A DNA stretch of 64,000 nucleotides, taken from the NCBI GenBank assembly GCA_964482695.1, contig CAYZYP010000001.1:68143-132142 (forward strand), read 5' to 3'. The position numbers were made by a program, and so were the translations under genes. Below, one piece after another: positions 23,343 to 44,030 of this stretch (its first letter is position 1; the number at the start of each line of letters is the position of its first letter). The notes under the pieces are model-generated. The model did not search any database, had not been told where the DNA came from, and worked only from the letters and a program-made list of their open reading frames with translations. The DNA is from an uncultured Gammaproteobacteria bacterium. GTDB taxonomy: Bacteria; Patescibacteriota; Patescibacteriia; Magasanikbacterales; GWA2-37-8.

Positions 23343-23452
23343 GTCAGTATATATTTTAAAAGAAAAAAACAGTTATCCGTTTGCCTTTTTGCCTTTCGGC
23401 AAAAAGTTTTCCGACTACTTTTTTCTTTTAAAATATATACTGACCGCTGGCG
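23343..23452. repeat. Long nested palindrome E with ~35-bp perfect arms (cgccagcggtcagtatatattttaaaagaaaaaa) around an inner hairpin.
   Basis: Seen directly. It shares the 'cattgcgccagcgg' terminus with the element at 43958-44030. Confidence 0.8.
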
Positions 23453-23654
23453 AATCGTAAAAAAGATAATATTTTTATTTGCTCTTTAAAATCAAAATAT
23501 ATTTTGGGCGAGTTGCCCTTGTTTTTGTTTGTTTTGACGTTTTTGGTAACGTCTTTTTTGTTGATGTGGGTTTTAAGCAGATAAAGACAAGGGTAATGGT
23601 GCCCTTTTTTATTTTTTTCCAAGAGCCCACCAAATGGGCGGAAGGAGTTGATTC

Positions 23655-24956
23655 ATGGACACCAACCATGGAAACCCCACCCGCCCGGGGAAATGGGCGA
23701 AAATTCCGCGTGTGGCCTTTGTGGCTCACGCGTTATTGCCCGGCTATAGCTCCACGGCGCTGATTGAACAGCGCTTGCATGAGCTTGGCCGGGACTGCTG
23801 GCCTGGATCTGGCGAGGATCCGGGTTGGATAAAATGGTTTAGTTTTCCTGTCTGCCCCCCGTCGCAGTCTAGCGGCCAGCCGATCTGGGTTGACTTTTAC
23901 GTCATCCCAGTGTTGGCGCCACGGTTTCTTAAAGCCGTGGTGGCTGGGCAGGCATACAATTGGGCCGAGGAAGTGGCACTCGCCGCCATTTCCGAAGCCC
24001 AAGCCGATGGAGTTGAACTGACCCTGGGTTGGGGTGCTCTGACCAAGTTGGCCACTAATCACGGCCAGCTGTTTCTGGAAAAGCACCCCGAACTTAGTGG
24101 GCAGTTTAATTCTACACACGGTGATGCCGGCACCGCCCTGTTGGTAACAGAGGGTTTGATGCGGGCGGGCGTGGAGCCCGGTTGTCGTGTTGCCGTGATG
24201 GGCGCCAATGGCGCCATCGGCGACGCGGTGAGCCGGGTAATCACCACAGTAATTCAGCCGGAGAGTATTCTCTTGGTCGGCAAGGCGGACCGACCGGGAG
24301 AGACAAAAAATCTCTCCAGGCTGGAGGAACTCAAGTCGCGGGTGCGAGGTCATGTCCGCGGTGGAGCCACTGAGGTGGCCATTCACCAGGATAAGACACG
24401 CGCTTGCCGCGATCATCGCAGCGATGTGGTGGTCGTGGCGACCACCGGCATGGATCTCTCTCCGAGAGAAGTGCCGGTGGGGGCGCTGGTTATGGATATG
24501 ACCACGCCCGCTGCTTGCCAGCTTGACCCGAGCTGGGGCGGTCATCTAGTTTTGACCGCCGGATGCGGGGAATTCTCTCCCGAGGTTCTGCCCTCGGGGT
24601 TTGGAAATATAGGCGGCCGCCGACTGATTGATGCCGGCGCCGGTGGTCCTCGAATCATCTGGGGCTGTACGGGCGAAACCATCGCCCGGGCGGTCTTCGG
24701 ATGGCGAGGCCATTTGGCCGGGACGGCGATTCCCATGGACGCTCTGGAGTGGTGTTCTGACCACTTCGAGCGTCTGGGATTAGTCTCCCAGCCGCCTCTG
24801 AGTTTTAACAACCCAATCAGTTGGTCGCGCGTGCGAGAATTTGTCCAATTCTCGCGGTCGGCGCGGCCGCTGAAGGGGTTGATGAGGCGTTCTCCTCCCG
24901 CCAAGGAGGCGCCTATGGATTTGGGCGGCGTTCGCGCCGTCCTGTATCCAAAATAA
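23655..24956 (+). CDS. GC-rich foreign gene encoding an acyl-ACP reductase-like / COG5322-family NAD(P)-binding oxidoreductase. The conserved core begins near the GTG at 23712.
   Basis: 'VAFVAHALLPGYSS..IEQ', 'TLGWGALTKL' and the Rossmann motif 'VAVMGANGAIGDAVSRVI' parallel the cyanobacterial acyl-ACP reductase architecture. GC is ~60% against ~33% background. GGAAGGAG lies 8 nt upstream of the ATG. Confidence 0.5.
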   Translation: MDTNHGNPTRPGKWAKIPRVAFVAHALLPGYSSTALIEQRLHELGRDCWPGSGEDPGWIKWFSFPVCPPSQSSGQPIWVDFYVIPVLAPRFLKAVVAGQAYNWAEEVALAAISEAQADGVELTLGWGALTKLATNHGQLFLEKHPELSGQFNSTHGDAGTALLVTEGLMRAGVEPGCRVAVMGANGAIGDAVSRVITTVIQPESILLVGKADRPGETKNLSRLEELKSRVRGHVRGGATEVAIHQDKTRACRDHRSDVVVVATTGMDLSPREVPVGALVMDMTTPAACQLDPSWGGHLVLTAGCGEFSPEVLPSGFGNIGGRRLIDAGAGGPRIIWGCTGETIARAVFGWRGHLAGTAIPMDALEWCSDHFERLGLVSQPPLSFNNPISWSRVREFVQFSRSARPLKGLMRRSPPAKEAPMDLGGVRAVLYPK

Positions 24957-24997
24957 CCGCCCCGCGTGTTCACACCGCGGGGCGTTCTCTTTTTGTT
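24957..24997 (+). terminator. Rho-independent terminator (ccccgcgtgttcacaccgcgggg followed by a T-run).
   Basis: Strong GC hairpin and a U-tract immediately after the stop. Confidence 0.7.
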
Positions 24998-25057
24998 AGT
25001 ATTTTTTTGTGGTATAATATTATTATCATTCTTCTTAACTTCGTAATTTTTATTTTC

Positions 25058-26665
25058 ATGTTTACAGAAGTTTTTACTATTTTACCATTAGCCTGTGCCA
25101 TATCAGTGGCATTATTTGGTTTTTTTATTTTGTCAAATAATTATAGATCAAGAATGAATCAATTGATGTTTGGTTTTTGTTTATCTATGTTTTTTTGGCA
25201 ATTTGGTACTTTTATGATGTTTGGCACCAGAGTAGACGACACGCATACAGCTGTTTTTTGGGATAGATTTGTTTATATAGGCGTGGTGTTTATGCCATCT
25301 TTAATGCATCATTTTAGTTTGATTTTTACTGATAATAAAAAACAGAGAAGTTTATTGGTTATAAATTATATTTTATCTTTTTTATTTTTAGTTGCTAGCC
25401 GTTCGGAATATTTTGTTAGTGATTTATTTATATACTCTTGGGGCGCTCATTCAAAAGCAAAAATTTTACACACAGTATTTTTAGGTTATTTTTTCTTGGG
25501 CACAGGTCTATTTTTCTTTAATGTTTATAGATATTACCGAGCGGCAAAAGAAAAAATAGTTAAAATACAATCTATCTATGTATTTTTGGCTTTTGCTATT
25601 GTTATTTTTATTGGTGGCTCGGCCTATTTATATGCTTATGGCATAGACACAAAATTTCCTTTTGCCTATTTTACTGGTTTAATTTTTCCTGTTTTACTTT
25701 TTTACGCGGTTACCAAACACCATTTATTAGGTGGTAAAATGATACTTATCGAAGTATTAGTTGGTTTGGCTTGTTTTGTTTTGTTAACAGAGATGTTTTT
25801 GGCGAGATCAACTAGCGAATTAATTATCAGAATATTGATTGCTTTGATTATAACAATGATTGGCGTGCTATTAGTTATTTCCGTACGCAAAGAAATCCAG
25901 CGTCGCGAAGAAATCACCCAACTAGCCCACTCGCTAGAAAAAGCCAATTTGCGGCTAAAAGAATTAGACCAGCAAAAAACAGAATTTTTATCCATTGCTT
26001 CACACCAATTGCGCACGCCATTGTCGGTTTTAAATGGTTATCTGGAACTGTTAAAAGATGGCGACTATGGCAAGCCCACCAAAGGCATGTTAGAAGTAAT
26101 AGACAATATGGAAATCAGTAATGGTCATTTGGTAAAATTAATAGATAACTTTTTAGATATTTCGCGCATAGAACAAGGCCGAACCAAATTTAATTTTATT
26201 CAAGTAGATTTGTGTAAATTAGTCGCTAGCGTGGTAGAAGAATTACGCCAGCGCGCTTTGGATAAAGGCTTAAAAATTATTTGGCAGACAGAAGCTTGTT
26301 CTACCACCAAAGTAGAAGTAGACGAAGAGAAGATTAGGCATGTGGTGTTTAATTTTATAGATAATGCTATTAAATATACCGACAGTGGCACAATTAAGGT
26401 TAAGATGGAGCCAGAAGATAATGGCTTCGCAATAATGATAAAAGACCATGGGCTTGGTTTTGGTAAAGTAGACGAAGCTAATTTTTTTCAGAAATTTTAT
26501 CGCGGTGAAAATGTTAAGGGCATTAATGTCAATGGCACCGGTTTGGGCCTTTATGTCTGTCGCAAGTTTATAGAAGCCCATAATGGCAAAATTTGGGGCC
26601 ATAGCCAGGGCAAAAATAAGGGCAGTGAATTTGGTTTTTGGATACCGGCGAAGAGAAATGGGTAA
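25058..26665 (+). CDS. Sensor histidine kinase with an N-terminal multi-TM sensing domain. No adjacent response regulator.
   Basis: H-box 'FLSIASHQLRTPLSVLNGYLELL' and HATPase_c G-boxes 'GLGFGK' and 'GTGLGLYVCRKFIEAHNG'. The start is moved to the ATG at 25058, where composition switches back to AT-rich. Confidence 0.75.
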   Translation: MFTEVFTILPLACAISVALFGFFILSNNYRSRMNQLMFGFCLSMFFWQFGTFMMFGTRVDDTHTAVFWDRFVYIGVVFMPSLMHHFSLIFTDNKKQRSLLVINYILSFLFLVASRSEYFVSDLFIYSWGAHSKAKILHTVFLGYFFLGTGLFFFNVYRYYRAAKEKIVKIQSIYVFLAFAIVIFIGGSAYLYAYGIDTKFPFAYFTGLIFPVLLFYAVTKHHLLGGKMILIEVLVGLACFVLLTEMFLARSTSELIIRILIALIITMIGVLLVISVRKEIQRREEITQLAHSLEKANLRLKELDQQKTEFLSIASHQLRTPLSVLNGYLELLKDGDYGKPTKGMLEVIDNMEISNGHLVKLIDNFLDISRIEQGRTKFNFIQVDLCKLVASVVEELRQRALDKGLKIIWQTEACSTTKVEVDEEKIRHVVFNFIDNAIKYTDSGTIKVKMEPEDNGFAIMIKDHGLGFGKVDEANFFQKFYRGENVKGINVNGTGLGLYVCRKFIEAHNGKIWGHSQGKNKGSEFGFWIPAKRNG

Positions 26666-26734
26666 CCCTTTCCTCATTCCTCAAAATATAGTATTATATA
26701 CCCACTAACTTAACTTAATTTAATTTTAACAAGT

Positions 26735-27220
26735 ATGATTTTTCAAAAGAAAACGACATTTTTAGAAGAAATGACAAATAATAACGCCAATTTAGTCACA
26801 CCTGCGCAATCCAGAGAAGATGATGACGTAGAGACAGTCGTTGGCCCATCTGTTCACGTAGAAGGGGATTTAAGCTCTTCTGGCAATATTCTGGTAAAAG
26901 GCATGGTATCCGGCAATGTAAATACTACCAAACATCTAACAGTAGAGCCAGGAGCCAAAATAGTAGCCAACGTACATGCCGGAAGTGCCAAGGTATCAGG
27001 TGAAATAAAAGGCAATGTTAAAATAAAAGATTCTTTAGAACTTACTTCTTCAGCGCGGATTTTGGGCGATATTTCGGTAAAAGTATTGACTGTTGAACCA
27101 GGCGCTGTTTTATACGGCAAAATTTCCATGCCAGGGATAGAAGCAACAGAAAAGCAAACACCAGGGAAAAGGATAATTAAGAAAAGCACTGGCGAGTCAA
27201 TGAATAATAACGAGGCATAA
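26735..27220 (+). CDS. Bactofilin (DUF583) family cytoskeletal protein.
   Basis: Repetitive beta-helical segment 'VHVEGDLSSSGNILVKGMVSGNV.....LTVEPGAKIVANVHAGSAKVSGEIKGNVKI' is typical of bactofilins. Confidence 0.6.
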   Translation: MIFQKKTTFLEEMTNNNANLVTPAQSREDDDVETVVGPSVHVEGDLSSSGNILVKGMVSGNVNTTKHLTVEPGAKIVANVHAGSAKVSGEIKGNVKIKDSLELTSSARILGDISVKVLTVEPGAVLYGKISMPGIEATEKQTPGKRIIKKSTGESMNNNEA

Positions 27221-27267
27221 ATCCTAAATTGACATAATGGGATTTTGGATTTCAGTTTTTTTAAGTT

Positions 27268-28032
27268 ATGTACGTCTATCTTTACGACAATTTTTTGCGT
27301 CATAAAAGTTTTTCTTCTACAATTAAAGCCATGGAAGTTAAATTAACAGACTATGGTATTGCCGGGAAAATTTTACGTTTGCATAATTATATTGACGTAA
27401 AACCGATAATTGATGATGAGATAAAAAAAGGCGCTAAAACCATTGTAATAGTGGGTAATGACGCCACCTTTGGCCAAGTATTATCGCGGGGAGCAACTTG
27501 TGATTGTGTTTTTGGTTTTTTGCCAGTAGGCCCGGATAATACCATTGCCGATGTGCTCGGTGTTTCAATTGGAGTTGATGCTTGTGACGTGTTATCACGT
27601 CGTCGCAAAGAAAAACTAGATGTAGGCTGGATGAACAATCGTTATTTTGTTTCCCAACTTAGAGTACCGCCAGCAAAAGTAGAAGTAATTTATGATGAAA
27701 AGTTTAAAGCTAGTTCTAGAGATAAAATGGAAGTTGTTGTCTGTAATTTACAGCCATTTTATTGGAAACGAGATAAAAAAGATTCCGAACAGCAAGTAGT
27801 TCATCCACAGGATGGAAAATTAGAAGCTTTTTTGCGGCCATTGACAAAAAAGCGTTGGTGGGGTTATAACTACGAAGAGCCGAGCGTCTTTCCGTTTGAA
27901 GAAATGGAAATAATCGGTGACGAGGCTTTTGCCGTAGAAGCAGATGGTAAATATTCAAAAGAAGTGCGGTTAAAAATACGTTTGGCGAGGAATAAGATAG
28001 AGATGATAGTAGGGAGAAATAGGAAGTTTTAG
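27268..28032 (+). CDS. Diacylglycerol-kinase-catalytic-domain (DAGK_cat/YegS/NAD-kinase-like) family protein with a degenerate GGDGT motif.
   Basis: 'TIVIVGNDATFGQVL' aligns to the GGDGT region but reads GNDAT. Overall size and layout are consistent with the family. Confidence 0.35.
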   Translation: MYVYLYDNFLRHKSFSSTIKAMEVKLTDYGIAGKILRLHNYIDVKPIIDDEIKKGAKTIVIVGNDATFGQVLSRGATCDCVFGFLPVGPDNTIADVLGVSIGVDACDVLSRRRKEKLDVGWMNNRYFVSQLRVPPAKVEVIYDEKFKASSRDKMEVVVCNLQPFYWKRDKKDSEQQVVHPQDGKLEAFLRPLTKKRWWGYNYEEPSVFPFEEMEIIGDEAFAVEADGKYSKEVRLKIRLARNKIEMIVGRNRKF

Positions 28033-28055
28033 TAAAAAACAAGTGTCATTCATTT

Positions 28056-28137
28056 GCCCGGGTGGTGAAATTGGTAAACACGCCATTTTGAGGTGATGGT
28101 GTCGCAAGGCTTGGAGGTTCGAGTCCTCTCCCGGGCA
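28056..28137 (+). tRNA. tRNA-Leu (anticodon GAG), type II with a long variable arm.
   Basis: Manual fold: acceptor gcccggg/cccgggc, D-arm gtg-aaattggtaaa-cac, anticodon stem ccatt/gatgg with loop ttGAGgt, 13-nt variable arm, T-arm ggagg-ttcgagt-cctct, discriminator A. CCA is not encoded. Confidence 0.8.
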
Positions 28138-28152
28138 CTAAAATTAATTTTT

Positions 28153-28395
28153 ATGCGTTATTTAATCGGCTTGGCAATGGTTGGTTTTGGTGTTATATTA
28201 ATAATAAAGACCAAGTGGTTTGTAGAGAATTTTGGCACCAGTGCTTGGGCCGAAGAAAAAATGGGCACTGCTGGCGGCACGCGTTTGATGTATAAATTAA
28301 TTGGTTTGGGCTTTATATTTTTCGGCATGATGGTAATAACCAATATGATCGGTGGATTTTTAATGGCAACGATTGGGAAATTATTTATGAGATAA
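28153..28395 (+). CDS. Small membrane protein (two TM helices), unknown function.
   Basis: Hydrophobic ORF. The start is moved to 28153 to avoid overlapping the tRNA. Confidence 0.35.
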   Translation: MRYLIGLAMVGFGVILIIKTKWFVENFGTSAWAEEKMGTAGGTRLMYKLIGLGFIFFGMMVITNMIGGFLMATIGKLFMR

Positions 28396-28406
28396 ATTTA
28401 ATTATT

Positions 28407-28952
28407 ATGTCTCACTCGGGCACCGCTTTAATTGATCCGTATAAAGTTTTTGAAAAAGTAGGCTTATCTCCTGGGATGCGGGTGGCTGATTTTGGTTGTG
28501 GCCGCACTGGTCATTTTGTTTTCCCTAGCGCCAAAATAGTAGGTGAAAAGGGGATAGTTTACGCCATAGATATTATTAAAAACATATTAGAAAGCATCAA
28601 GAGCTTGGCAAAAAGCGAAGGTTATGATAATGTGCAAGTGATTTGGTCTGATGTTGAGCTTGTTGGGAAAACACCAATACCGGAAAATAGCCTAAATGCC
28701 TGCTTTTTTATCAATTTATTGTCCCAAGTAAAAGAAAGAGAAGCTGTTATCAAAGAAGCTTCGCGCTTATTGAAAAACGATGGTTATTTGGCCGTAATAG
28801 ACTGGCATAAAAAATTAGGTCTTTTGGGGCCCAGTGAAGCACAAAAAGTTTTGCCGGAATTGGTAATTAATTTTGCTAAAGATAGTAATTTAAAATTACA
28901 AGAAAGCACCATGATGAGCGATTACCATTATTTGTTGATTTTTAGAAAATAA
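28407..28952 (+). CDS. Class I SAM-dependent methyltransferase.
   Basis: Motif I 'VADFGCGRTGHF' and an acidic residue after beta-2 in 'VYAIDI'. Confidence 0.55.
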   Translation: MSHSGTALIDPYKVFEKVGLSPGMRVADFGCGRTGHFVFPSAKIVGEKGIVYAIDIIKNILESIKSLAKSEGYDNVQVIWSDVELVGKTPIPENSLNACFFINLLSQVKEREAVIKEASRLLKNDGYLAVIDWHKKLGLLGPSEAQKVLPELVINFAKDSNLKLQESTMMSDYHYLLIFRK

Positions 28953-28958
28953 TATATT

Positions 28959-29351
28959 ATGAGTATACAAAATATTTTTATTATTAATTATTGGCTTAGC
29001 CAACCTTTGCCAGCTTATGGTTTTACACTATTATTATTAGTAGGCGGCTTTTTGTTTTTTATAATTGTTGGTTTAGTGCTAAGAATAGTGATACAGACTA
29101 AAAAAGACAAATCAATAAGAGTGGCTTTGAAACGTTTGAGTAATTTTTGTATGGTTATGGGGTTGCTTGGCCTGATGTGGATGTTTTTTCGTCAACAAAA
29201 CGTATTTTTTTTATCTTGGCGATTTTGGTTATTGATTTTGATAGGCATCGCCGCTTGGTGGTTAGTGCGTATTTTAGAATATGTTATTCGTCGCGTACCA
29301 GTAATTAAACAAGAGCAAGCTGAACGAGAGATAAAGGCTAGATATTTATAA
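28959..29351 (+). CDS. Membrane protein of unknown function.
   Basis: Three predicted TM segments and a basic C-terminus. Confidence 0.35.
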   Translation: MSIQNIFIINYWLSQPLPAYGFTLLLLVGGFLFFIIVGLVLRIVIQTKKDKSIRVALKRLSNFCMVMGLLGLMWMFFRQQNVFFLSWRFWLLILIGIAAWWLVRILEYVIRRVPVIKQEQAEREIKARYL

Positions 29352-29360
29352 CTATATATT

Positions 29361-29720
29361 ATGTCAAGGAGGGCAAAAAATATAGGCGACTGGGGTGAAA
29401 ATCAAGCCGTAGAATTTTTAAGACGGCATGGTTTTGAAGTAAGAGAACGCAATTATCATGCCACAGTCGGAGAAATAGATATAATCGCCGTCAAAGACGG
29501 TGATTTTTATTTTATTGAAGTAAAGACAAGGTGTGGTAGATCTGATTTGGCTAATGATTTAACTATTACTAAAAACAAGAAATTCCGCTTGTCTAAAACC
29601 GTTAGACATTATTGCTATCATCGCCAAATAGTTAATACATCTTTGATTTTGGCTGGTCTGGTAGTGGCGGTAGATAGATATATCAAGAGGGTAAAATTTC
29701 GATTTTGCGTATTCTATTGA
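29361..29720 (+). CDS. YraN/UPF0102-family endonuclease-like protein.
   Basis: 'GENQAVEFLRRHGFEVRERNYHATVGEIDIIAVKDGDFYFIEVKTR' matches the UPF0102 core (PD-(D/E)xK-like). Confidence 0.7.
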   Translation: MSRRAKNIGDWGENQAVEFLRRHGFEVRERNYHATVGEIDIIAVKDGDFYFIEVKTRCGRSDLANDLTITKNKKFRLSKTVRHYCYHRQIVNTSLILAGLVVAVDRYIKRVKFRFCVFY

Positions 29721-29778
29721 CTGTTATTAGTTTTTTTGTTAAAATGTTGTTAATTAATAAAATTTAATATAATTTAGT

Positions 29779-30357
29779 ATGAATTTCAAACAAGAACGCA
29801 CTTATGTTATGATAAAACCAGACGGTGTTAAAAAGGGTTTGATTGGCGAAATTATTCGTCGTTTTGAACAGCGTGATTTAAAGATTGTTGCTTTGGAAAT
29901 GTTTATGCCCACCAGAGAGCAAATTGACAATCACTATCCAAAAGATGAAAGTTGGATAAGGCGTTTGGGGCAAAAAACATTAACCACTTATGAAAAATAT
30001 AAACTAGATCCAATGAAAGAATTAGGTGTTAACGACGAGTTTGAAATAGGGAAAATGGTACGTGGTTGGTTGGTAGATTACATGGTTTCTGCTCCTTTGG
30101 TACGAATGGTAGTAGAAGGCGTGCACGCTGTTGATATGGTAAGAAAAATTTGCGGGAATACTCTGCCATATTTAGCTGATATGGGAACAATCAGAGGTGA
30201 TTATTCTGCCGATTCGCCAGCCGTGGCCAATATGGAAAAAAGAGCTGTGATGAATTTGGCGCACGCGTCGGAAACAGCCACCGAAGCAGAGCACGAAATT
30301 AAACACTGGTTTGGGGATAGAGAAGTAATTTTTAAATATTCACGATTTACGGATTAG
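29779..30357 (+). CDS. ndk: Nucleoside diphosphate kinase with a ~45-aa internal insertion.
   Basis: 'ERTYVMIKPDGVKKGLIGEIIRRFEQ', 'NLAHASETATEAEHEIKHWF' and the catalytic His in 'NLAHAS'. At 192 aa it exceeds the usual ~140 aa. Confidence 0.75.
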   Translation: MNFKQERTYVMIKPDGVKKGLIGEIIRRFEQRDLKIVALEMFMPTREQIDNHYPKDESWIRRLGQKTLTTYEKYKLDPMKELGVNDEFEIGKMVRGWLVDYMVSAPLVRMVVEGVHAVDMVRKICGNTLPYLADMGTIRGDYSADSPAVANMEKRAVMNLAHASETATEAEHEIKHWFGDREVIFKYSRFTD

Positions 30358-30394
30358 CAACCTTTATAGGTACGCCTTATAGGCACGCCTAAAT

Positions 30395-30480
30395 GTTACG
30401 CATGGCGCCAAGGGATATGACTTTTTGGATCACAGGCTTTCGCCTGATGCCCAAAAAGTAATATCCCTTGGCGTGACGCA
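30395..30480. repeat. Nested palindrome G. Outer arms are gcgccaagggatat.actttttgg. An inner hairpin is atcacaggctttcgcctgatg.
   Basis: Seen directly. The right terminus 'ggcgtgacgc' is shared with the element at 43958-44030. Confidence 0.7.
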
Positions 30481-30578
30481 TTAATGAATAATTAAGACGC
30501 TGAGAAGCGTCTTTTGGATTAAGTTGAATAATGGTATAATATAGGATATATTTTGGCTAAAATATAAATTTAATTTTT

Positions 30579-31583: not shown

Positions 31584-31603
31584 AATTTAGGATTTGCCAA
31601 GTT

Positions 31604-34650: not shown

Positions 34651-34925
34651 TTTTTTTAATATTGTTTTAATAAAACTTCATAATTTATCCCCAAAATTTA
34701 CTTGCCAAAAAAATTTTGATGATGTAAAAAATATTTAAGGAGGGGAAAATATATAGCAAGTGCTTTATATTTTTCTAAAAGTATTTTTTACATTGTCCTT
34801 AGTACCCCTCCAAATACCCGGCCGCTTATAGCGAGCAAGCAGCGGGCAGAAAAAGGAGGGTTTTTTGTTCTGCTTTGTTCGCTTAAGCGGCGGGAAAGGG
34901 CGAATTAATTTAATAATTAAGCAAT

Positions 34926-35375
34926 ATGCGTAGCAAATTTTTTTTAGTAGCACTTTTTATATTTTTAGTTTTATTTATTTTAATTATGGTTTTGTATTTT
35001 TGGTTCACAAACAAACAAGAAAGGCTGAACGAATCAAATAAAATGTTATCTACACAATATATAAACGAAAACGTAGCGACTTTGCAAACACCGGAACAAA
35101 CTTATGAAAAATTAAGAGAATATTTAAATCAAGGAGAAATAAACAAAGCAACCGATCTTTTTATAGGCAAGTACCAGAGTAGATATCAAGAAATTTTTTC
35201 TCAGGCTAAAAAAGAAAATAAATTAAAAGAATTAGCCGGCAAGTTAGATAGCAAGATAAAAAAGTCAGCTACTGATTGTTTGATTACTCATTGTACCTAC
35301 ATTATGGAAAACAGCAGAGTAGAGATTGATTTTATTAAGGATGAGAATGGAGTGTGGCGAGTAGAAGCCTTATAA
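34926..35375 (+). CDS. Small N-terminally anchored protein of unknown function.
   Basis: N-terminal TM helix followed by a soluble ~110-aa domain. No recognisable motif. Confidence 0.35.
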   Translation: MRSKFFLVALFIFLVLFILIMVLYFWFTNKQERLNESNKMLSTQYINENVATLQTPEQTYEKLREYLNQGEINKATDLFIGKYQSRYQEIFSQAKKENKLKELAGKLDSKIKKSATDCLITHCTYIMENSRVEIDFIKDENGVWRVEAL

Positions 35376-35427
35376 TTTAAGATTTGTCGTCTAAATCTAA
35401 AATCTTAAATCATAAATTTTAAATTAT

Positions 35428-38400
35428 ATGAGGAGGGATAAATTTAAAATATTTTTTGTTATTTTTAGTATTGTTTTAATCATAGTCGTGGGAGTAATTT
35501 ACGAGCGCGCTAGTAGTTATGATTCTGTTTTAACGCATCCTGGAATTGTTGTTCTGGCGGCTAAATTACATAATGACAAGGCGGAAAGAAAATTAACACT
35601 TCAAGAAATAAATTGGTTGGCCGAAGGAGCAGAGTTAGAAGATACACCTACTCGCTGGCTTAACCATTTTTATGATCCAGTAAGTAGCCGTGGCTTAAAA
35701 GGTATTTATTTGTCAGCCAAAAAATGGGCTAAAAACAGTGATAAACAGAAAAATTATGCCTTAGGCGACAATAGTTGGCTTAGAGCAATAGATGATTATA
35801 AAAAAGGGAATTATGAACAGGCTTTCAAAGCTTTAGGCCATGTTTTGCATTTAATAGCCGACGTATCTGTGCCGGCTCATACGCGCGACGATATTCATAT
35901 TTACAGCGATTCTTACGAAGAATTTGTAAAGCAGAATTGGCATGCTTTAAAATCGCGATTAGATCAAGAAAATTTAACTGTCAATAATTTGGAAAATATT
36001 TTTGATCAATTAGCTTTTTACAGCAATAATAATTTTTTTAGCGATGATACAATAGTAGATTCTAAGTATAAACTGCCAAGTTTAGAATTTTTAGATGTCC
36101 AAGGTGATTATTTAATCAGTAATTTAGACAATAAAGATTATAAGTTAGCTTACAAATTAGCGCGTTTTAGACAATCTATATTTGATCAGCGTTTTATTAT
36201 TTACAAACTAGACGCGTCTGTTTTGTCTGACTATGCCAGATTTCTTTTGCCAAAAGCCATCAGTTATAGCGCTAGTGTAATAAATTTATTTTTTGCTGAA
36301 ATACAAAATAATGTTCCACGAAATTTATCATCAGAGCGTGTTAATGTTTTGGGGCAAGTTAATCAGGCGGTTGGCGCTGTAGTTAGTAAAGGAGAAGAAA
36401 TAATAGAAAAAATTAGTTTATTAGAAGACCAAAAAGATGTTATTTACGAAAATGTTTTAAACCTAGGTGACAAATTAGACCCAAACGAAAGTATGGCAGA
36501 ATTTTTTGTAGTAGAAGATAAAGAAAAAAACGATGACGATATAAATAATATAGAAAACGTGCCAATTGAGACAAGTAAAGAAGAGGTAAAGTTAATAGAA
36601 TTGCCATCAATTATTTTGGAAAATAATGAAAATAATAGCTATGCTTATTTATTTACCGCGATAGCGGCCGATAGTGATAATTTAACAGCTTCAAATACAG
36701 TGGCGTCTGTTGTTGCTAGTAGTACGATAGTGGCGACATCTACTCTTTTTACTACAACAACAATATTTGTTACCTCTACTTTAGTTACTTCCACTACAGC
36801 TGTTACTTCTACTATTGTAATTTCTACCAGCAGTATTATTAACAGCTCTCTTGTTTTTGACGCAGCAACAACTACCGATGATTATTATGTCGCAACTTCT
36901 ACTAATCAATCTGGCGTTGTTTCTCCATCCTCAACAGTTAGCGATGATTTAAGTATGGAGGTAATAATAAATGAGATAGCTTGGGCAGGTGTATCTAGCG
37001 ATTTTCCCAAAGATGAGTGGTTTGAATTATATAATAATACCGATAAAGAGATAGATATTACTAATTGGAAAATTTTAGTGTCTGGCCGAGAAATTAAGTT
37101 AGAAAATATAAAAAATATTATAATAAAGCCTTACGGATATTATTTATTAGAAGCAAACAGAACAGAGCGGATGATCGGCCTAGAGCCGGATGCTTTGTAT
37201 GACCTAACTTACGGCATTAATAATCAAGGGGCTAAAATAGAATTATTTAATGAACAGGGTGTAAAGATAGATGAAGTAGATTGTTCTAATGGCTGGTTTT
37301 TTGGCGACAATGTTAAATATCGTTCTATGGAAAGATTAGATTCTTTGGCTGATGGTAATGATATAAATAATTGGCAGAGTAATTATGGTCCGCGGGCAGA
37401 GCCGCGCACTTATTTGGGCGGACCAATTTATGGCTCGCCAGGCATGCCTAATTTTGGTTTTATTTCTTTGCGTGGCGCGCAAGAAAACAATATTGTTGAT
37501 TTAACTTATGAAAATAATCCTTATGTGTTAGAAAATTACGAAATTCCCGTTGGAAAAATATTAAATATTCAGCCAGGAGTGATTGTTAAGGGTTATAGCC
37601 AGTTGGCTAGAATAGATGTTAAGGGGGAGTTAAATATAAACGGTACGATTGCCGAGCCAGTAGTTTTTACTTCTGGCCGGGATAATACTTTTGGCTACGA
37701 TTTGTATGATACAATGGTCGGCCAATGGAACAGTGAACTGGCTGTTGGCAAAGATTGGCAAGGATTTAGATTTTATCCAGAGTCAACAGGCAAAATAGAT
37801 TATTTAGAAATGCGTTATGCCGGAGCAGATTTTAAATTACTAGATAACGATGCTAATACAGTTTCCGAAGCAATTAGGGCGGATGGAGCCAATATTAATA
37901 TAAATAGCAGCACATTTTATTACAATGGGTCTAAAACAGTAGTTTTAGATAATACTTTTACTAGTATTAAAAATACCGCCTTTGTTGGCGGAGAAGTAGC
38001 AATAGAATCAAAAGACAGTAATTTGAATTTATTTAATCTTAACTTTGATTATTACAGCGCTATTGATGGCATTTTATCAATTAGCGGTGATTGGCCTAAA
38101 CTAGAAAATTTAGTAGCCGGAGAAGGAACAAATAATTTGTTTAAATTTGAAAAAATAGAAATGAAGCCAGATGATTTATTGAATATAGCGGCGGCGTTTA
38201 TTGGAGATGACGATTTAGATGGTGGCGTAGTTAACAATAGTAAAGTAATAACCCTGTTTAATGATTGGCAATATTTGTTTAGTGAATTATCGGTAGAAGC
38301 AGGTGTTACTTTGCGTATCAAAGAGGGAACTAATATTTATTTAAATAATCGTGGAGTTATTGATATCAAAGGCCAATTAGAGTCTTTGGGAACCGCAGAT

Positions 38401-38895
38401 AAGCCAATTAATATTTTACCTTTTTCTGGCTCGTGGGCTTATATAATATTTAATAATACTAGTTCAACTTTAAATTATACAAATATTATTAGTGGTGGCG
38501 CTTTTCCAGAAATTTATAACACAGCGTTACTAGTCAATAATTCTAATCTTAATTTAAATAATTGTTATTTGTGGAATCACCGCCAGCCAGGGAACGTGAT
38601 AAAAGCAACTAATTCAATTTTGAACTTAGTAGTTAGTGAAATTGGCGCGGACAATCGTTGGCCCAACCCGCTTTTCCCAGGTATGTCTTATTCTACTGGC
38701 ATTGATTTAACTGGTGGAGAAATTTATTTAGAGAGTACGAATTTTGAGAATTTAAATTTTGGTGTTTATTCTCATCAGTTAAATAATCAAATGCCAATAA
38801 TTAAAATTAAAGATATGTTTTTGGATAATTTTATCAATGTTTACAATCAATGGGAACCTTGGGTTGCTTGGCACTATGTGCCATTTGCTTCTTAA
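35428..38895 (+). CDS. Large (1155 aa) secreted/surface protein. It has an N-terminal zinc-phospholipase-C/P1-nuclease-like domain, a Ser/Thr-rich linker, a lamin-tail domain (LTD) and a C-terminal right-handed beta-helix region.
   Basis: N-terminal TM. 'HVLHLIADVSVPAHTRDD' is His/Asp-rich. The linker is 'ASSTIVATSTLFTTTTIFVTSTLVTSTT'. 'VIINEIAWAGVSSDFPKDEWFELYNNTDKEIDITNWKI' has the LTD motif pattern. Gly/Asn-rich repeats follow. Confidence 0.55.
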   Translation: MRRDKFKIFFVIFSIVLIIVVGVIYERASSYDSVLTHPGIVVLAAKLHNDKAERKLTLQEINWLAEGAELEDTPTRWLNHFYDPVSSRGLKGIYLSAKKWAKNSDKQKNYALGDNSWLRAIDDYKKGNYEQAFKALGHVLHLIADVSVPAHTRDDIHIYSDSYEEFVKQNWHALKSRLDQENLTVNNLENIFDQLAFYSNNNFFSDDTIVDSKYKLPSLEFLDVQGDYLISNLDNKDYKLAYKLARFRQSIFDQRFIIYKLDASVLSDYARFLLPKAISYSASVINLFFAEIQNNVPRNLSSERVNVLGQVNQAVGAVVSKGEEIIEKISLLEDQKDVIYENVLNLGDKLDPNESMAEFFVVEDKEKNDDDINNIENVPIETSKEEVKLIELPSIILENNENNSYAYLFTAIAADSDNLTASNTVASVVASSTIVATSTLFTTTTIFVTSTLVTSTTAVTSTIVISTSSIINSSLVFDAATTTDDYYVATSTNQSGVVSPSSTVSDDLSMEVIINEIAWAGVSSDFPKDEWFELYNNTDKEIDITNWKILVSGREIKLENIKNIIIKPYGYYLLEANRTERMIGLEPDALYDLTYGINNQGAKIELFNEQGVKIDEVDCSNGWFFGDNVKYRSMERLDSLADGNDINNWQSNYGPRAEPRTYLGGPIYGSPGMPNFGFISLRGAQENNIVDLTYENNPYVLENYEIPVGKILNIQPGVIVKGYSQLARIDVKGELNINGTIAEPVVFTSGRDNTFGYDLYDTMVGQWNSELAVGKDWQGFRFYPESTGKIDYLEMRYAGADFKLLDNDANTVSEAIRADGANININSSTFYYNGSKTVVLDNTFTSIKNTAFVGGEVAIESKDSNLNLFNLNFDYYSAIDGILSISGDWPKLENLVAGEGTNNLFKFEKIEMKPDDLLNIAAAFIGDDDLDGGVVNNSKVITLFNDWQYLFSELSVEAGVTLRIKEGTNIYLNNRGVIDIKGQLESLGTADKPINILPFSGSWAYIIFNNTSSTLNYTNIISGGAFPEIYNTALLVNNSNLNLNNCYLWNHRQPGNVIKATNSILNLVVSEIGADNRWPNPLFPGMSYSTGIDLTGGEIYLESTNFENLNFGVYSHQLNNQMPIIKIKDMFLDNFINVYNQWEPWVAWHYVPFAS

Positions 38896-38980
38896 AAGAG
38901 ATACTGAAGGCTCCGGCTGGCTTTTGAACAAGGCAAAATCGCCATTGTCTTGAGCCAGCCGGAACCCGGTTGTGGTGCTG

Positions 38981-39232
38981 TTAGTACTGAGCGTTGTACT
39001 CCTCCTGGCTCATCGAGAGAGCCTTCTTCAATTCGTTGTACATTTTTGTTGCTGCGCGATTCAGAGGCTCAGAGCCTCTTTTCCCCTCGATGTAGTTATC
39101 GAGGTGAGTCGCCGTCAGCAGTACCACACCTCCTTGGATTGATCCTCCTACTTCGGCCGGCTTGAGCCGGCTCAAAGCCTCCCTTACCAGTTTCAATGCT
39201 TCTGTTACTGTCGGTTTTTTGGCCGTTATCAT
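38981..39232 (-). CDS. Small (83 aa) hypothetical protein encoded by a locally GC-richer segment.
   Basis: AGGAGG lies 7 nt upstream of the ATG on the minus strand. A hairpin ccggctggct..agccagccgg follows its 3' end. No family was recognised. Confidence 0.4.
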   Translation of the reverse strand: MITAKKPTVTEALKLVREALSRLKPAEVGGSIQGGVVLLTATHLDNYIEGKRGSEPLNRAATKMYNELKKALSMSQEEYNAQY

Positions 39233-39371
39233 TTTACAACCTCCTGTGTTTGGGAGAACATAGCTACTTTATATTATATTTTAGCCAAAAAGTCAAGTTT
39301 GCTGTTTGACTTTTGGCGGTTTTAATATTAAAATATCCAGTATCTAATATTTTAATATCTAATATTTTGTT

Positions 39372-41453
39372 ATGAAAAAACATATTGAACTAGTTGTTAA
39401 GATTTTAATTTACGCCACTTTTCTTGTCCCTTTAATAGTTATACCCAGTTCTTTTATATTTCCCTTTATCGTGCCGAAAATATTAATTTTCCGTTCTTTG
39501 GTAACAGCCATGCTTGCTGGCTATATATTGCTTTTGATAATTAATTGGCAGGAATACAAGCCAAAACTAACAATTTTAAATATAGTTTTAGCCGCTTTTT
39601 TACTTAGTTTTGCTATTTCTACTTTTGTTGGCACAGACGCATACCACAGCTTTTGGGATAATCACGAACGCATGTTGGGTTTGTTTACTATTTTTCATTA
39701 TGTTGCCTATTATTTTGTCTGTACCGCGGTTTTTAAAAACTGGAAAGATTGGCAAATGGCTTTGCGCATTTTTTTAATTGCCGGCACTTTGGTAGCAATA
39801 ATTGGCTTGCTGCAAGTAGGTAATCCGTATTTATTGCTCAATCAGGGAGGCACTCGTGTTGCCAGCACATTAGGCAATTCTATTTATTTAGGCGGTTATG
39901 GATTATTTTTATCTTTTGTCGCTTTTTTATTAATTATCAGAGAAAAATACACTATTTGGCGTTTAGCAGAGGGATTTTTGGGATTATTAGCGGTTTTAGC
40001 CATGTTTTATAGTGGCACGCGCGGTTCTATGCTTGGCTTGGTAGCTGGTGTCGGCGTTTTGTTGGTTGGTTATGTCATTGTTTTAAGAGAACATCCCAAA
40101 ACACGTTTAATTATAGGCGGAATTATTTTGGCAGGAATAGTTTTATTGGGGATTCTTTATACTTATCGACAAACTAATTTTGTTAGCAGTATCCCAGCAG
40201 TTGGTCGTTCGCTTAACACCAGTTTGACCTCGTTAAAAAACAGCCCTCGTTGGATAGCTTGGGAAATAGCCATAGACAGCTTTAAGCAACGGCCAATATT
40301 TGGCTGGGGGCCAAATAACTTTTTTTACGCTTTTAACGATAATTACAATCCACGTTCTTTGGAATTTGGTTATGGTGAAACGTGGTTTGACAACGCACAC
40401 AATATTATTGTCAATACTTTGGCTGTACAAGGGATATTTGGTTTGGTTGTTTATTTATCTATTTTTGTCTTATCAATTTTAGTTTTGTGGAAAACCTTTT
40501 ATCATCAAGGAATTAATAAACATTTAGTTGTTGCTGGCGCTGCTTTTTTAGTGGCTCATTTAGTACAGAATGTTACAGTGTTTGAAAATCCAACTTCATA
40601 TCTTTATTTTATGTTTTGGTTGGCAATGATTAATCAATTAACAATTGCCAGTCCTAAATTTTTAGAAAAAAATAGTGGAGTAGACGAATACAAAACGGCC
40701 AACAGGGCAGATAATAAAAACGGCAGAAAAGACCAAGAGATTGGATATTGGGCGTTTTCTACAGTTAGCGCTTTAACTTTGCTCTTAATTTTTATTTTTA
40801 ATATCCAGCCAGCCAGAGCTAACATGAAAACCCTAGAGGCTTTAAGAATGATTTCTTCGGAATACCCATCTTTGGGTGTAGAGCCAATGAAAGAGGCTTT
40901 GGCTTTTAGCTCTCCGCATATAGATGATATTCGCGCTGATATAGGTCGTACAGTTGGGCAAATAATCAACAGTTCTTATCAAAAGTTAGGATTAGACAAG
41001 AGCAAAGAAATTTTAGATATTGCTTATAATGCTTTGTCGGAAAATTTAACTTTGCATCCTTTGGATATTCGTAATCAATTAACTATTGCTCAATTAGCAC
41101 AGACAAAAGCAATTTTAGAAAATAATGCCAACTATTTGTTAGAAGCGGAAAAATTTTTAGAAGACGCGTTAAAAAAATCTCCTAAACGCCAGCAGATTAT
41201 TTATAATTTATCAAGTATTAAACTACAAGTTAATAAACAAACAGAAGCGGTTCAATTGATGGAGCAGACTATTAAAGACAATTATAAAATAGCCGAAAGT
41301 TATTGGCGTTTGGCTTATACTTATAAAGCTATTGGCCAATCGCAAAAAGCCAAAGAAACTATAGATCTGGCTTATAAAAATAATATTCAATTTAGTGACA
41401 ATGAAAAAGAAATTATCAAACAAATTTTAACAACAGCGACAACAACAAAATAG
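39372..41453 (+). CDS. O-antigen ligase/polymerase-like (Wzy_C family) membrane protein with a C-terminal TPR-repeat domain.
   Basis: ~10 TM helices with 'YSGTRGSMLGLVAGVGV' typical of Wzy_C. The C-terminal 250 aa contain TPR-like helices ('AESYWRLAYTYKAIGQSQKAKE'). Confidence 0.6.
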   Translation: MKKHIELVVKILIYATFLVPLIVIPSSFIFPFIVPKILIFRSLVTAMLAGYILLLIINWQEYKPKLTILNIVLAAFLLSFAISTFVGTDAYHSFWDNHERMLGLFTIFHYVAYYFVCTAVFKNWKDWQMALRIFLIAGTLVAIIGLLQVGNPYLLLNQGGTRVASTLGNSIYLGGYGLFLSFVAFLLIIREKYTIWRLAEGFLGLLAVLAMFYSGTRGSMLGLVAGVGVLLVGYVIVLREHPKTRLIIGGIILAGIVLLGILYTYRQTNFVSSIPAVGRSLNTSLTSLKNSPRWIAWEIAIDSFKQRPIFGWGPNNFFYAFNDNYNPRSLEFGYGETWFDNAHNIIVNTLAVQGIFGLVVYLSIFVLSILVLWKTFYHQGINKHLVVAGAAFLVAHLVQNVTVFENPTSYLYFMFWLAMINQLTIASPKFLEKNSGVDEYKTANRADNKNGRKDQEIGYWAFSTVSALTLLLIFIFNIQPARANMKTLEALRMISSEYPSLGVEPMKEALAFSSPHIDDIRADIGRTVGQIINSSYQKLGLDKSKEILDIAYNALSENLTLHPLDIRNQLTIAQLAQTKAILENNANYLLEAEKFLEDALKKSPKRQQIIYNLSSIKLQVNKQTEAVQLMEQTIKDNYKIAESYWRLAYTYKAIGQSQKAKETIDLAYKNNIQFSDNEKEIIKQILTTATTTK

Positions 41454-41471
41454 AATATAACGTAATTTTTT

Positions 41472-42791
41472 ATGCCGCAGGATGATAAAATTATTCAGAA
41501 AATAAAAGAATTTCCTCGACAAAAAGTTCTGGTAGTTGGTGATATGATGTTGGATAAATTTACTTATGGTGATATTTCTCGTATTTCTCCAGAAGCGCCA
41601 GTACCAGTTTTAAAGAAAATAGCTGATAAATATATTTTGGGAGGAGCTGGAAATGTTGCCAGTAATATTAAAGCATTGGGCGCGCAGGTTTTTTTAGTTA
41701 GCATGGTAGGAGCGGATGAAGCAAAAATACGAGTTTTTTCTTTATTGAAAAAAGCAAAGTTATCTTCGCGTTCTGTTCTTGTTAGTAAAGATGGATCAAC
41801 AACCATAAAACAGAGATTTGTTGTTGGCTCAACACAACAGTTGTTGCGGTTAGACGAAGAAAGCACAGAAGAAATGAATTTAAAAGAAGAAACAGCATTT
41901 TTAAAACAGTTAAAAAAGGTAATACCAGAATGCGATATAATAATTGTGTCCGATTATTGCAAAGGTTGTATAACTTTTAATATAGCCAGAGAGTTGATAA
42001 AATTAGCGAAAAAACATAAAAAAAGGGTGATAGTAGACACCAAGCCAATGCACAGAGATTTTTTCTTAGGAGCGGACATATTTACACCTAATATTAAAGA
42101 AGCGCAAGAAATGTCTGGCGAAGAAAATGTAGAAGAAGCCGGTAAAAAATTAGCTAAATTATTAAAAGCGACGATTTTGTTAACCAGATCGTCGGAAGGC
42201 ATGACGATTTTTAATAAAGATAATTTGGTTCAACACGTGCCGGCAAAATCAGCGCACAGAGTATTTGACGTAACCGGGGCAGGTGATACGGTAGTAGCCA
42301 TTTTAGCTTTATCTTTGGCTAGTGGCCTTAATTTAAAGGAGTCAGCAGAATTGGCCAATAATGCCGGTAGCATAGTAGTACAAAAGCCCGGGACATCAGT
42401 GTTGTCGGCGGCAGAACTGATTTCTAGTTTGGCGGAAATTGATAATGTAGCCACTACGAAAATAGTGCCAAAAGTTTGGGGTTATGAAAAATGGTTGGAA
42501 AATAATGAAAAATATTGTTGTAAGATTTTAGTGATTAAAAAAGATTTCCAATGCAGTTTGCATTTTCATAAAATTAAAGACGAAACTTTTTTATTGGTTA
42601 AGGGTTATTTACAAATGGAAGTGAATAAAAAAACAATTTATTTAAAACCAGGAGATTATATACGCATAAAACCCGGCGACAAACATCGTTTTACTGGGCT
42701 AGAAGAATCAGAAATTTTAGAAATTAGCACTCATCACGAAGAAAAAGATTCTTATCGTTTAATAAAGAGCAGAAGAGTGTTAGTAAAATAA
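41472..42791 (+). CDS. D-glycero-beta-D-manno-heptose-7-phosphate kinase (HldE/RfaE domain I, PfkB family) fused to a C-terminal cupin domain.
   Basis: 'VLVVGDMMLDKFTYGD' and 'DVTGAGDTVVA' are the PfkB anion hole motif. The C-terminal ~115 aa 'KVWGYEKWL...HFHKIKDETFLLVKGYL.....PGDYIRIKPGDKHRF' is a cupin. Confidence 0.65.
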   Translation: MPQDDKIIQKIKEFPRQKVLVVGDMMLDKFTYGDISRISPEAPVPVLKKIADKYILGGAGNVASNIKALGAQVFLVSMVGADEAKIRVFSLLKKAKLSSRSVLVSKDGSTTIKQRFVVGSTQQLLRLDEESTEEMNLKEETAFLKQLKKVIPECDIIIVSDYCKGCITFNIARELIKLAKKHKKRVIVDTKPMHRDFFLGADIFTPNIKEAQEMSGEENVEEAGKKLAKLLKATILLTRSSEGMTIFNKDNLVQHVPAKSAHRVFDVTGAGDTVVAILALSLASGLNLKESAELANNAGSIVVQKPGTSVLSAAELISSLAEIDNVATTKIVPKVWGYEKWLENNEKYCCKILVIKKDFQCSLHFHKIKDETFLLVKGYLQMEVNKKTIYLKPGDYIRIKPGDKHRFTGLEESEILEISTHHEEKDSYRLIKSRRVLVK

Positions 42792-42807
42792 GAATTTACA
42801 AAAGTTT

Positions 42808-43389
42808 ATGAAAAGAGCTATCTTTTTGGACCGGGATGGCGTAATAAATAAAGATCGCGGTTATACTTTTAAAATATTTGATTACGAATTATTGCCCGGT
42901 GTTAAACAAGGATTACAAAAATTACAAAAAGCGGGCTTTGGCTTATATGTTTTAACTAATCAATCGGGGATAGGCCGCGGTTTTTACACAGAAAATGATT
43001 ATTATAAATTTACTAACTATCTATTATCCGATTTAAATTCAGCCGGCATAAAAATAGCAGGCTGTTATTTTTGTCCGCACCATCCAACAAATGGGCAAGG
43101 GGAGTATAAAAAAGATTGTCATTGCCGTAAGCCAAAATCAGGTTTGTTGTTGCAGGCAGAAAAAAAAGATGGGCCGTTTGATTATAGAAAAAGCTGGGTT
43201 ATAGGAGACAGTATCAGGGATATTGAAACAGTAAAAAATATCCATCCCGAAGCAAGAGGTATTCTGTTGCCTAAAAATTACGATACCAATGATGAACTGT
43301 CTATTGAAGCAAAAGAAAAAAATAATAAATCAGTTAATTATTTTGTTGAAAATTTTTTACAGGCTGTTGATTTTATTTTATCTGAATAG
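42808..43389 (+). CDS. gmhB: D,D-heptose 1,7-bisphosphate phosphatase (HAD-IIIA).
   Basis: 'AIFLDRDGVIN', the Zn-binding 'CYFCPHHP....C.CRKP' and 'GDS..D'. Confidence 0.7.
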   Translation: MKRAIFLDRDGVINKDRGYTFKIFDYELLPGVKQGLQKLQKAGFGLYVLTNQSGIGRGFYTENDYYKFTNYLLSDLNSAGIKIAGCYFCPHHPTNGQGEYKKDCHCRKPKSGLLLQAEKKDGPFDYRKSWVIGDSIRDIETVKNIHPEARGILLPKNYDTNDELSIEAKEKNNKSVNYFVENFLQAVDFILSE

Positions 43390-43453
43390 TCATACAACGA
43401 GTAAATATTCCTTGATGTTGACGCTTCGAAGACTATTATTTAATAATTTAGAT

Positions 43454-43936
43454 ATGACAAAGAACAAAATAAAAAAAATAAATGAATTAGTTAAAATCAG
43501 ACAGCAGTTAAGAAAGCAGGGGAAGAAAGTAGTTACCACCAATGGTTCTTATGACATTTTTCATGTTGGCCATGTTCGTAGTTTAGAAGAATCCAAAGCC
43601 CAAGGAGATATTTTAATAGTAGGGGTAAATAGCGATAGTTCGGTAAAAAAATACAAATCAAAAGAAAGGCCTATTGTGCCAGAAAAATTGCGAGCAGAAT
43701 TAGTGGCATCGCTCGCCTGCGTTGATTATGTTTTTATTTTTTCCGAAATTAACCCAATTAAATTTATTAAAAAGTTAAAGCCAGATGTCCATACCAATAG
43801 CGTTGATTATGGTGAAAATTGCGTTGAAAAAGAAACAGTGGAAAAAAATGGCGGTAAAATTTATCTTTTAAAAAAATACAGTGATATATCTAGTTCAGTA
43901 ATTATCAAAAAAATTTTAGCGATGAATCGTAAATAG
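43454..43936 (+). CDS. D-beta-D-heptose 1-phosphate adenylyltransferase (HldE/RfaE domain II, cytidylyltransferase-like), encoded separately.
   Basis: 'VVTTNGSYDIFHVGHVRSL' is the (H/T)xGH nucleotidyltransferase motif. 'ILIVGVNSDSSVKKYK' is present. Confidence 0.7.
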   Translation: MTKNKIKKINELVKIRQQLRKQGKKVVTTNGSYDIFHVGHVRSLEESKAQGDILIVGVNSDSSVKKYKSKERPIVPEKLRAELVASLACVDYVFIFSEINPIKFIKKLKPDVHTNSVDYGENCVEKETVEKNGGKIYLLKKYSDISSSVIIKKILAMNRK

Positions 43937-43957
43937 CAGAGTGTAAATTATATGCAT

Positions 43958-44030
43958 TGCGCCAGCGGAAAACACTTTTTAGAGCACTTGACGTAAGTCA
44001 AGTGGAGCTAAAAAGTGTTTTCCGCTGGCG
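43958..44030. repeat. Nested palindrome F. Outer arms are gcgccagcggaaaacactttttag. An inner hairpin is cacttgacgtaagtcaagtg.
   Basis: Seen directly. It shares termini with E (23343-23452) and G (30395-30480). Confidence 0.75.

Follow-up and report, generated by a model that had tools for sequence, protein, structure and literature searches.

Long palindromic repeats of bacterial genomes include the miniature inverted-repeat transposable elements (MITEs) and comparable sequences, e.g. the Correia elements of Neisseria, the enterobacterial ERIC, the RPE of Rickettsia and the pneumococcal RUP. Within a MITE family, copies usually resemble each other from end to end. The repetitive extragenic palindromic (REP) elements of E. 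coli slow 3′ exonucleases, and HUH enzymes use a hairpin together with conserved single-stranded flanks. The present work concerns three hairpin elements, termed E, G and F, in a 64-kb stretch of DNA (the window), whose host appears by sequence similarity to be an uncultivated member of the Patescibacteria (Magasanikbacteria-like) from groundwater. The three elements probably represent a lineage-restricted, non-coding, non-autonomous family of MITE/REP-like mobile palindromic repeats. The family is previously undescribed, and no description was found in the searchable library of literature on interspersed repeats in these bacteria; it is a familiar kind of element and not new biology.

Several properties are in common with MITEs and with the Correia, ERIC, RPE and RUP repeats. 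The elements are non-coding, ~100–150 nucleotides (nt) in length and thus within the 50–500 nt of MITEs, each consists of one long imperfect palindrome, and all are intergenic, between called genes and near gene ends. The arms, of 23–39 nt and 84%–100% complementarity, form terminal inverted repeats. As with MITEs, copies are dispersed (four loci in at least three genomes) and present or absent at orthologous sites (two filled/empty pairs), they have no enzyme of their own and they would be co-transcribed as stable hairpins. Unlike MITEs, they show no detectable target-site duplication, have no known parent insertion sequence, and gave no detectable sequence similarity to the Rfam, phage or plasmid collections. 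Copies of this family share only the foot of the hairpin and the flanks; the stem interior differs by module, and the conserved flanks, which lie beyond the arms, do not form an inverted pair.

Other properties are those of REP, BIME and REPIN sequences (RAYT) and of the IS200/IS605 elements (HUH): a hairpin whose foot is conserved and which has a short, conserved single-stranded flank on either side, no detected target duplication, one orientation relative to the replication strand, and strict DNA-type complementarity. However, the hairpins are 68, 71 and 118 nt long as compared with 20–40 nt for REP. They are singletons, not inverted pairs or clusters, with three copies in 64 kb. A GTAG-type tetranucleotide was not identified, and there is no RAYT or TnpA gene in the window. 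The definitions of attC sites, of REP/RAYT sequences and of terminators each fail in at least one of the features tested.

Three nested hairpins of one family

The inverted-repeat search gave arms of 39 nt with 95% complementarity for E (23335–23373/23414–23452), 32 nt with 84% for G (30406–30437/30442–30473) and 23 nt with 100% for F (43960–43982/44008–44030). These rank 1st, 3rd and 4th among all inverted repeats within 150 nt in the window. Fold prediction shows a separate apical hairpin inside each element. E folds with ~34 base pairs without interruption, and both F and G display a 2×2 internal loop between a short outer helix and the main stem. RNA folds have energies of −50 to −71 kcal/mol, with z-scores of −8.6 to −14.6 on either strand; DNA folds have z-scores of −7.0 to −13.5 (E: −47.8 kcal/mol, z = −13.5). 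None of 200 shuffled sequences folded as well. By the inverted-repeat ranks, fold z-scores and inner hairpins, the three long nested hairpins described in the original prediction are real.

The three loci are also those given earlier, except that E was said to start at 23343 and its repeat begins at 23335. The conserved unit adds ~22 nt to the left of the stem and 6–13 nt to its right. The location at gene 3′ ends holds as well: the 5′ flank of E begins 9 nt past the stop codon of the mazF-like gene (23304), that of G lies 27 nt past the ndk stop codon (30357), and that of F begins 2 nt past the stop codon (43936) of a cytidylyltransferase-like gene. The genes are not convergent, as had been thought possible; all neighbouring genes are on the plus strand.

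The short strings that had been quoted as common to these elements are present in E, G and F, and the likeness extends further. On the minus strand, each of them contains a match to the degenerate 24-nt motif CCSYTGGCGCMATGMRTAWMATTT, for which 0.02 matches are expected. This motif spans the stem foot and the left flank. Related or overlapping contigs that were compared with the window are labelled L120, L121–L124, L126, L128, L129, L136–L138, L140 and L141. A scan of metagenome contigs with the exact 24-nt motif, which is narrow, gave one copy (L120), and this yield is a lower bound. Another copy, L129, is found downstream of an NDK gene 90% identical to that of the window, in the same place as G. 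L120 derives from the sample behind Ga0172379, and L129 from run SRR22387810. A covariance model (R1) was built from the five copies E, G, F, L120 and L129 and used to search ~240 kb, i.e. the window with filters off, the loci of ~20 relatives and five viral contigs. The five copies score 101–111 bits and everything else 15 bits or less; the window has no further R1 match with filters off. The known copies are thus five, at four independent loci; these are intergenic, unrelated in position and spread over at least three related genomes. The shared motif, the five-copy alignment and the two copies outside the window bear out the proposal of a family. On the sequence evidence E, G and F are one family, and resemblance by chance is ruled out by the 24-nt motif and the scores of >100 bits.

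The five-copy alignment shows a conserved unit of ~105–155 nt in three parts, a 5′ flank, the hairpin and a 3′ flank. The 5′ flank (GYSYAAATRWTAYNCMWK) is conserved over ~22 nt and has no consistent pairing partner. The hairpin foot of 9 bp is conserved (CGCCARSGG/CCSYTGGCG). The next 14 bp of the stem fall into types: type A is found in F and L129, type B in G and L120, and type C in E. The apical hairpin varies between copies. The 3′ flank is of type 1 (TGACGC...) in G, F and L129, and of type 2 (AATYGTAAAAAAG) in E and L120. Beyond the conserved 22 and 13 nt, the outer flanks have no similarity between copies, except in the orthologous pair G and L129. The coordinates are given in Table 1.

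Table 1. Positions of the parts of E, G and F in the window, with one downstream terminator and one empty site
Feature	Position	Strand	Evidence and remarks
E 5′ flank (CACGCGCAAATGTTATTCATTG), conserved, unpaired	23313..23334	+	aligns with the same 22-nt flank of G, F, L120 and L129; 18/22 identical to L120
E hairpin, 118 nt	23335..23452	+	9-bp foot CGCCAGCGG/CCGCTGGCG; inner hairpin GCCTTTTTGCC-TTTC-GGCAAAAAG; R1 101 bits
E 3′ flank, type 2 (AATCGTAAAAAAG)	23453..23465	+	L120 has AATTGTAAAAAAG; 14/18 positions match
Empty site, 11 nt: junction of membrane-protein gene (ends 28395) and methyltransferase gene (starts 28407)	28396..28406	+	157 nt with a family member in the orthologous L120
G 5′ flank, conserved (CACGCCTAAATGTTACGCATGG)	30384..30405	+	five-copy alignment
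G hairpin, 68 nt	30406..30473	+	foot CGCCAAGGG/CCCTTGGCG; inner hairpin CAGGC-TTTC-GCCTG; R1 111 bits
G 3′ flank, type 1 (TGACGCATTAATG)	30474..30486	+	TGACGC common to F and L129
ndk terminator, canonical (AAGACGCTGAGAAGCGTCTTTT); context, not part of the element	30488..30513	+	terminator scan
F 5′ flank, conserved (AGAGTGTAAATTATATGCATTG)	43938..43959	+	five-copy alignment
F hairpin, 71 nt	43960..44030	+	23-bp perfect outer stem, foot CGCCAGCGG; inner hairpin CACTTGAC-GTAA-GTCAAGTG; R1 106 bits
F 3′ flank, type 1 (TGACGCGTGAAGT)	44031..44043	+	sequence, five-copy alignment

In other collections the searches were negative. A scan of the genome collection with CGCCARSGGN{40,70}CCSYTGGCGCMATG showed no low-GC family hairpin in the 118 stretches among the matches listed, and these were chance matches in G+C-rich genomes; the scan has no bearing on copy number. 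Scans of viral contigs likewise gave chance matches only, with no hairpin and no R1 match, and the phage and plasmid collections had no blastn match to the elements. The left-flank motif is not enriched as a free-standing signal.

Filled and empty sites and the reassortment of modules

Comparison of insertion sites in relatives, which had been put forward as a check, gave two orthologous filled/empty pairs in which the unit is gained or lost as a whole. The first is the 3′ end of ndk. This site is filled in the window and in L129, where the distance from stop codon to terminator is greater by ~120 nt, of which ~30 nt are to the left of the element. It is empty in the aligned contigs L136 and L121–L123 (NDK 88% identical), where the terminator follows ~25 nt past the stop codon; in L138 (NDK 87%) the site was read directly and also has no element. 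The orthologous terminator is found right after the ndk stop codon in L136 and after the element in L129. No R1 match was found in L124, L126, L140 and L141.

The second pair is the junction between a membrane-protein gene and a methyltransferase gene. L120 and the window (28150–28708) are 84%–85% identical on both sides of this junction by blastn, and the L120 junction, which contains the element, is the longer one (Table 1). The same junction measures 8–13 nt in L121, L124 and L126, all of which are empty in the alignment. In both comparisons the difference is ~120–150 nt and only the element differs; no gene moves along with it. Since most relatives are empty, both differences are gains by parsimony. 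The flanks belong to the element and not to a pre-existing target, because the empty sites are without the flank motifs.

The sites of E and F offer no such comparison. For the E site the closest ArgRS is only 61% identical and gives no usable ortholog. For the F site the closest heptosyltransferase is only 53% identical, and in the sole identical contig, L137 from a second sample, the F sequence is unchanged.

The hairpin and flank modules combine differently among copies. G and L120 are at different loci in different species, yet their foot and arms are identical at 46/46 positions, as against 15/22 and 5/18 for the flanks. E and L120 show the opposite relationship: the flanks agree at 18/22 and 14/18 positions, the foot at 7/9 and 7/9, and the arms at only 5/14 and 6/14. 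G and L129 are at the same site and agree in the right flank (16/18), with 7/9 and 7/9 in the foot and 11/14 and 10/14 in the arms. L129 and F have the same foot (9/9 and 9/9), arms that agree at 12/14 and 12/14 positions, and flanks at 13/22 and 10/18. From these segment identities the stem of L129 is nearest to that of F rather than to that of G. Either copies swapped hairpins through recombination or conversion at the foot, or different members were inserted separately at the ndk site. This reassortment of stems and flanks is the one unusual trait of the family.

Proposed mode of movement and alternative explanations

In the proposed process the palindrome would be maintained as DNA, in the form of a single-strand hairpin or a cruciform. 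An enzyme whose gene lies elsewhere would recognize the foot and the flanks and act in trans to move or copy the element. Recombination or gene conversion at the conserved foot would shuffle the hairpins. The geometry, with conserved single-stranded flanks around a hairpin foot, most resembles the substrates of HUH transposases (IS200/IS605 TnpA or RAYT), and HUH-type movement is suggested from this geometry only. The modularity of foot, flank and stem may lead to the mobilizing enzyme.

The pattern of base pairing bears on this. In the 23 aligned pairs, 96.5% of the cells are paired, 11 pairs are changed on both sides and none on one side only; 0 of 500 shuffles reach the observed values. Every change in the stem is a double Watson-Crick swap. 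There are no G·U pairs among the 23; the few mismatches are of the kinds G·A, A·G and C·A. The two strands are about equal in how well they fold. This pattern would be expected of a DNA palindrome (a hairpin or cruciform, or arm-to-arm copying) and not of an RNA helix.

It is unlikely that the elements are instead structured RNA modules, i.e. 3′ untranslated region (3′-UTR) or intercistronic stabilizers, RNase III sites or small RNAs, which spread by duplication and are selected for the fold of the transcript. All copies are directly downstream of a co-directional gene and in its orientation, the folds are very stable (−50 to −71 kcal/mol) and covariation keeps the helix intact, which would fit such modules. 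However, no aligned pair shows a one-sided change of the G·U type and the two strands fold equally. The sole hint of strand-specific pairing is in minus-strand RNA of G and F, which gains G·U pairs outside the main stem where the plus strand has an A·C mismatch; this can be read in favour of an RNA, but the strand concerned is antisense to all neighbouring genes. Only tRNA-Leu passes the Rfam gathering threshold in the window, and a permissive search gave no more than sub-threshold, generic eukaryotic miRNA-hairpin models. The insertion polymorphism and the conserved unpaired flanks would also be left without explanation.

Several points weigh against a mobile palindromic repeat as well. A parent element or candidate enzyme was not found among the window proteins, so the HUH mechanism is drawn from geometry. 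Target-site duplication, which had been named as a check, was not detected: flanking direct repeats are at the level of shuffled sequence, with boundaries blurred by the 12%–16% divergence of the empty-site relatives, so that the insertion boundaries are not fixed. At the filled sites the extra DNA (~120–150 nt) reaches ~30 nt beyond the conserved unit on either side. Gain and loss are told apart by parsimony only, just five copies at four independent loci are known, and the lack of G·U pairs comes from about three independent stem types. With respect both to transcription and to the leading strand, the four independent copies share one orientation. Strand-specific insertion of a single strand would agree with this, but so would selection on the transcript, and hence an RNA role too; four copies are too few, and 4/4 is not significant.

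There is a slim chance that the hairpins are substrates of a new structure-specific DNA system in Patescibacteria, in which an enzyme would read the foot and flanks of the folded strand, insert the unit and swap hairpin “cassettes” between copies. If true, this would be an attC-like or HUH-like system acting on hairpins that carry no gene, and it would explain both the identical stems in different flanks and the different stems at one site.

That the elements are sites bound or recognized by a host DNA protein (uptake-signal pairs, or sites of nucleoid or replication proteins) and carried on palindromes is very unlikely. Neisseria uptake sequences are often inverted pairs at gene ends, and the conserved foot of 9–10 bp does form an inverted pair, with all copies in one orientation on the leading strand. 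However, GCGCCARSGG is not enriched outside E, G and F: it has 13 matches at one mismatch, of which six are the element arms, leaving ~7 versus 5.2 expected. Such sites would not explain the palindromic interior or the conservation of the unpaired flanks.

Exceedingly unlikely are structure-specific recombination sites of the attC type, which in integrons mark gene cassettes; here the mazEF module with E after it would be an example. Like attC sites, the elements are defined by structure, with a conserved base and a variable palindromic interior of varied length (68–118 nt), and are found at gene 3′ ends; in F and G the 2×2 internal loop splits the short outer helix from the main stem. E directly follows the toxin-antitoxin module, and relatives lack this module in the interval from argS to the next conserved gene. 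Unlike attC sites, the elements lack the R and L boxes (RYYYAAC/GTTRRRY) on either strand; GCGTAAC, GAATAAC and GTTACGC break the consensus and occur at one end only. There are no extrahelical bases, as F has a perfect 23-bp stem and the mismatches of G, L120 and L129 are at paired positions and are not bulges. The copies stand singly among housekeeping genes, at distances of 7 and 13.5 kb, with no array and with no integrase or recombinase in the 64 kb, and at filled and empty sites the difference is the element, not a gene plus an element.

Intrinsic terminators of an unusual kind, or hairpins without kinship that are alike by chance or convergence, are hardly credible: the elements are at gene 3′ ends and have G+C-rich feet, but there is no U-tract or terminator score, terminators follow E and G, and the 24-nt motif, the >100-bit scores and the identical 46-nt stems at different loci and in different species speak against chance. 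The lack of clear U-tracts in E, G and F had been seen correctly in the original prediction, and its suggested terminator role is not upheld. The terminator scan reports neighbouring canonical sites and none of the three elements. Terminator-like hairpins follow E at 23506–23606, and the canonical ndk terminator just downstream of G is kept in relatives that lack the element. Because there is no U-tract and canonical terminators are downstream of E and G, the elements are predicted not to be terminators. In addition, the L120 copy is inside an otherwise 11-nt, operon-like gene junction. Of the earlier suggestion of a REP/MITE-like mobile palindrome, the family and its gain and loss remain; the terminator role and the kinship with a palindrome near asnB (see below) do not.

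Since all copies are just after or between co-directional genes, the elements are probably transcribed into very stable 3′-UTR or intercistronic hairpins, and these could retard 3′ exonucleases and protect the upstream mRNA. In practice, annotation of the hairpins as terminators or small RNAs should be avoided. The family is a marker for strain-level comparison and for breaks in metagenome assemblies. Few interspersed repeats are on record for Candidate Phyla Radiation bacteria. Their genomes are small and tightly packed, and a mobile hairpin family shows that selfish or co-opted palindromes are nevertheless tolerated in them.

Host, other palindromes and neighbouring genes

The NDK and ArgRS homologues found by protein similarity search are labelled Candidatus Magasanikbacteria or Patescibacteria, and genes identical to those of the window are present on groundwater metagenome contigs of project PRJNA292723, which includes the runs SRR2177951 and SRR2177954. 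The window has a G+C content of 35.7%. Its plus strand carries every real gene but one, and GC skew is >0 along its entire length. The genes include glycolysis enzymes, tRNA synthetases, cell-wall genes, a mazEF-like module and a large glycosylation cluster. A domain and annotation survey of the window proteins showed no transposase, integrase or HUH domain.

Other palindromes are present in the window. A nested palindrome of ~190 nt is found at 10041–10228 between pgk and a SIMPL-domain gene; its outer arms measure 34 nt and its inner stem is GAGCGAAACGAAGG/CCTTCGCTTCGCTC. The spacer that holds it is 263 nt long and folds with −92 kcal/mol. The palindrome is probably the “first family” of the earlier reader, and neither the motif nor R1 relates it to E, G and F. 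G+C-rich hairpins in AT-rich spacers are found at 34815–34900 and 63480–63620, with strings like GAGCGNAGCGA or GCGAGCAAGC, e.g. GAAGAGAAAAATAT/ATATTTTTCTCTTC at 63496–63525. These two resemble each other and the 10041–10228 palindrome more than they resemble the family of E, G and F. The one at 63480–63620, after asnB, had been offered as a possible degenerate relative; it does not match the motif within three mismatches, and R1, run with filters off, gives it no score at E ≤ 10. L136, a contig without the ndk element, has a different long palindrome upstream of ndk (positions 560–650), with ACGAAAGTACGAAAATATACGAAAGTAC repeats and their complement. Related genomes thus seem to carry palindrome families of their own at other sites.

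The mazEF-like toxin-antitoxin module (22687–23304; PemK/MazF domain, E-value = 2e-11) is located between argS and the next conserved gene, and E is directly after it. L121, L124 and L126 have other genes in place of this module, which itself looks like an insertion. The NDK protein (29779–30357) has 192 amino acids (aa) and matches the Pfam NDK domain in two stretches. The two-part match points to an insertion or extension, and the length is kept in more than 100 Magasanikbacteria-like homologues.

L128 (JGI contig Ga0103681_1003224) is G+C-rich and unrelated to the window at nt 1–520, where the window continues a DegT-family gene; the contig is probably an assembly chimera. The ~4 kb that it adds beyond the window contain no copy of the family.

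Two tandem genes (12470–14017 and 14035–15612) both encode cofactor-independent phosphoglycerate mutase, with iPGM_N and Metalloenzyme domains. Such a duplication is unexpected in a small genome. A spacer of 477 nt at 38895–39372 has 44% G+C versus 36% for the window and displays a minus-strand open reading frame of 83 aa (38981–39232), which is among the very few minus-strand genes of the window. This spacer may be foreign DNA.

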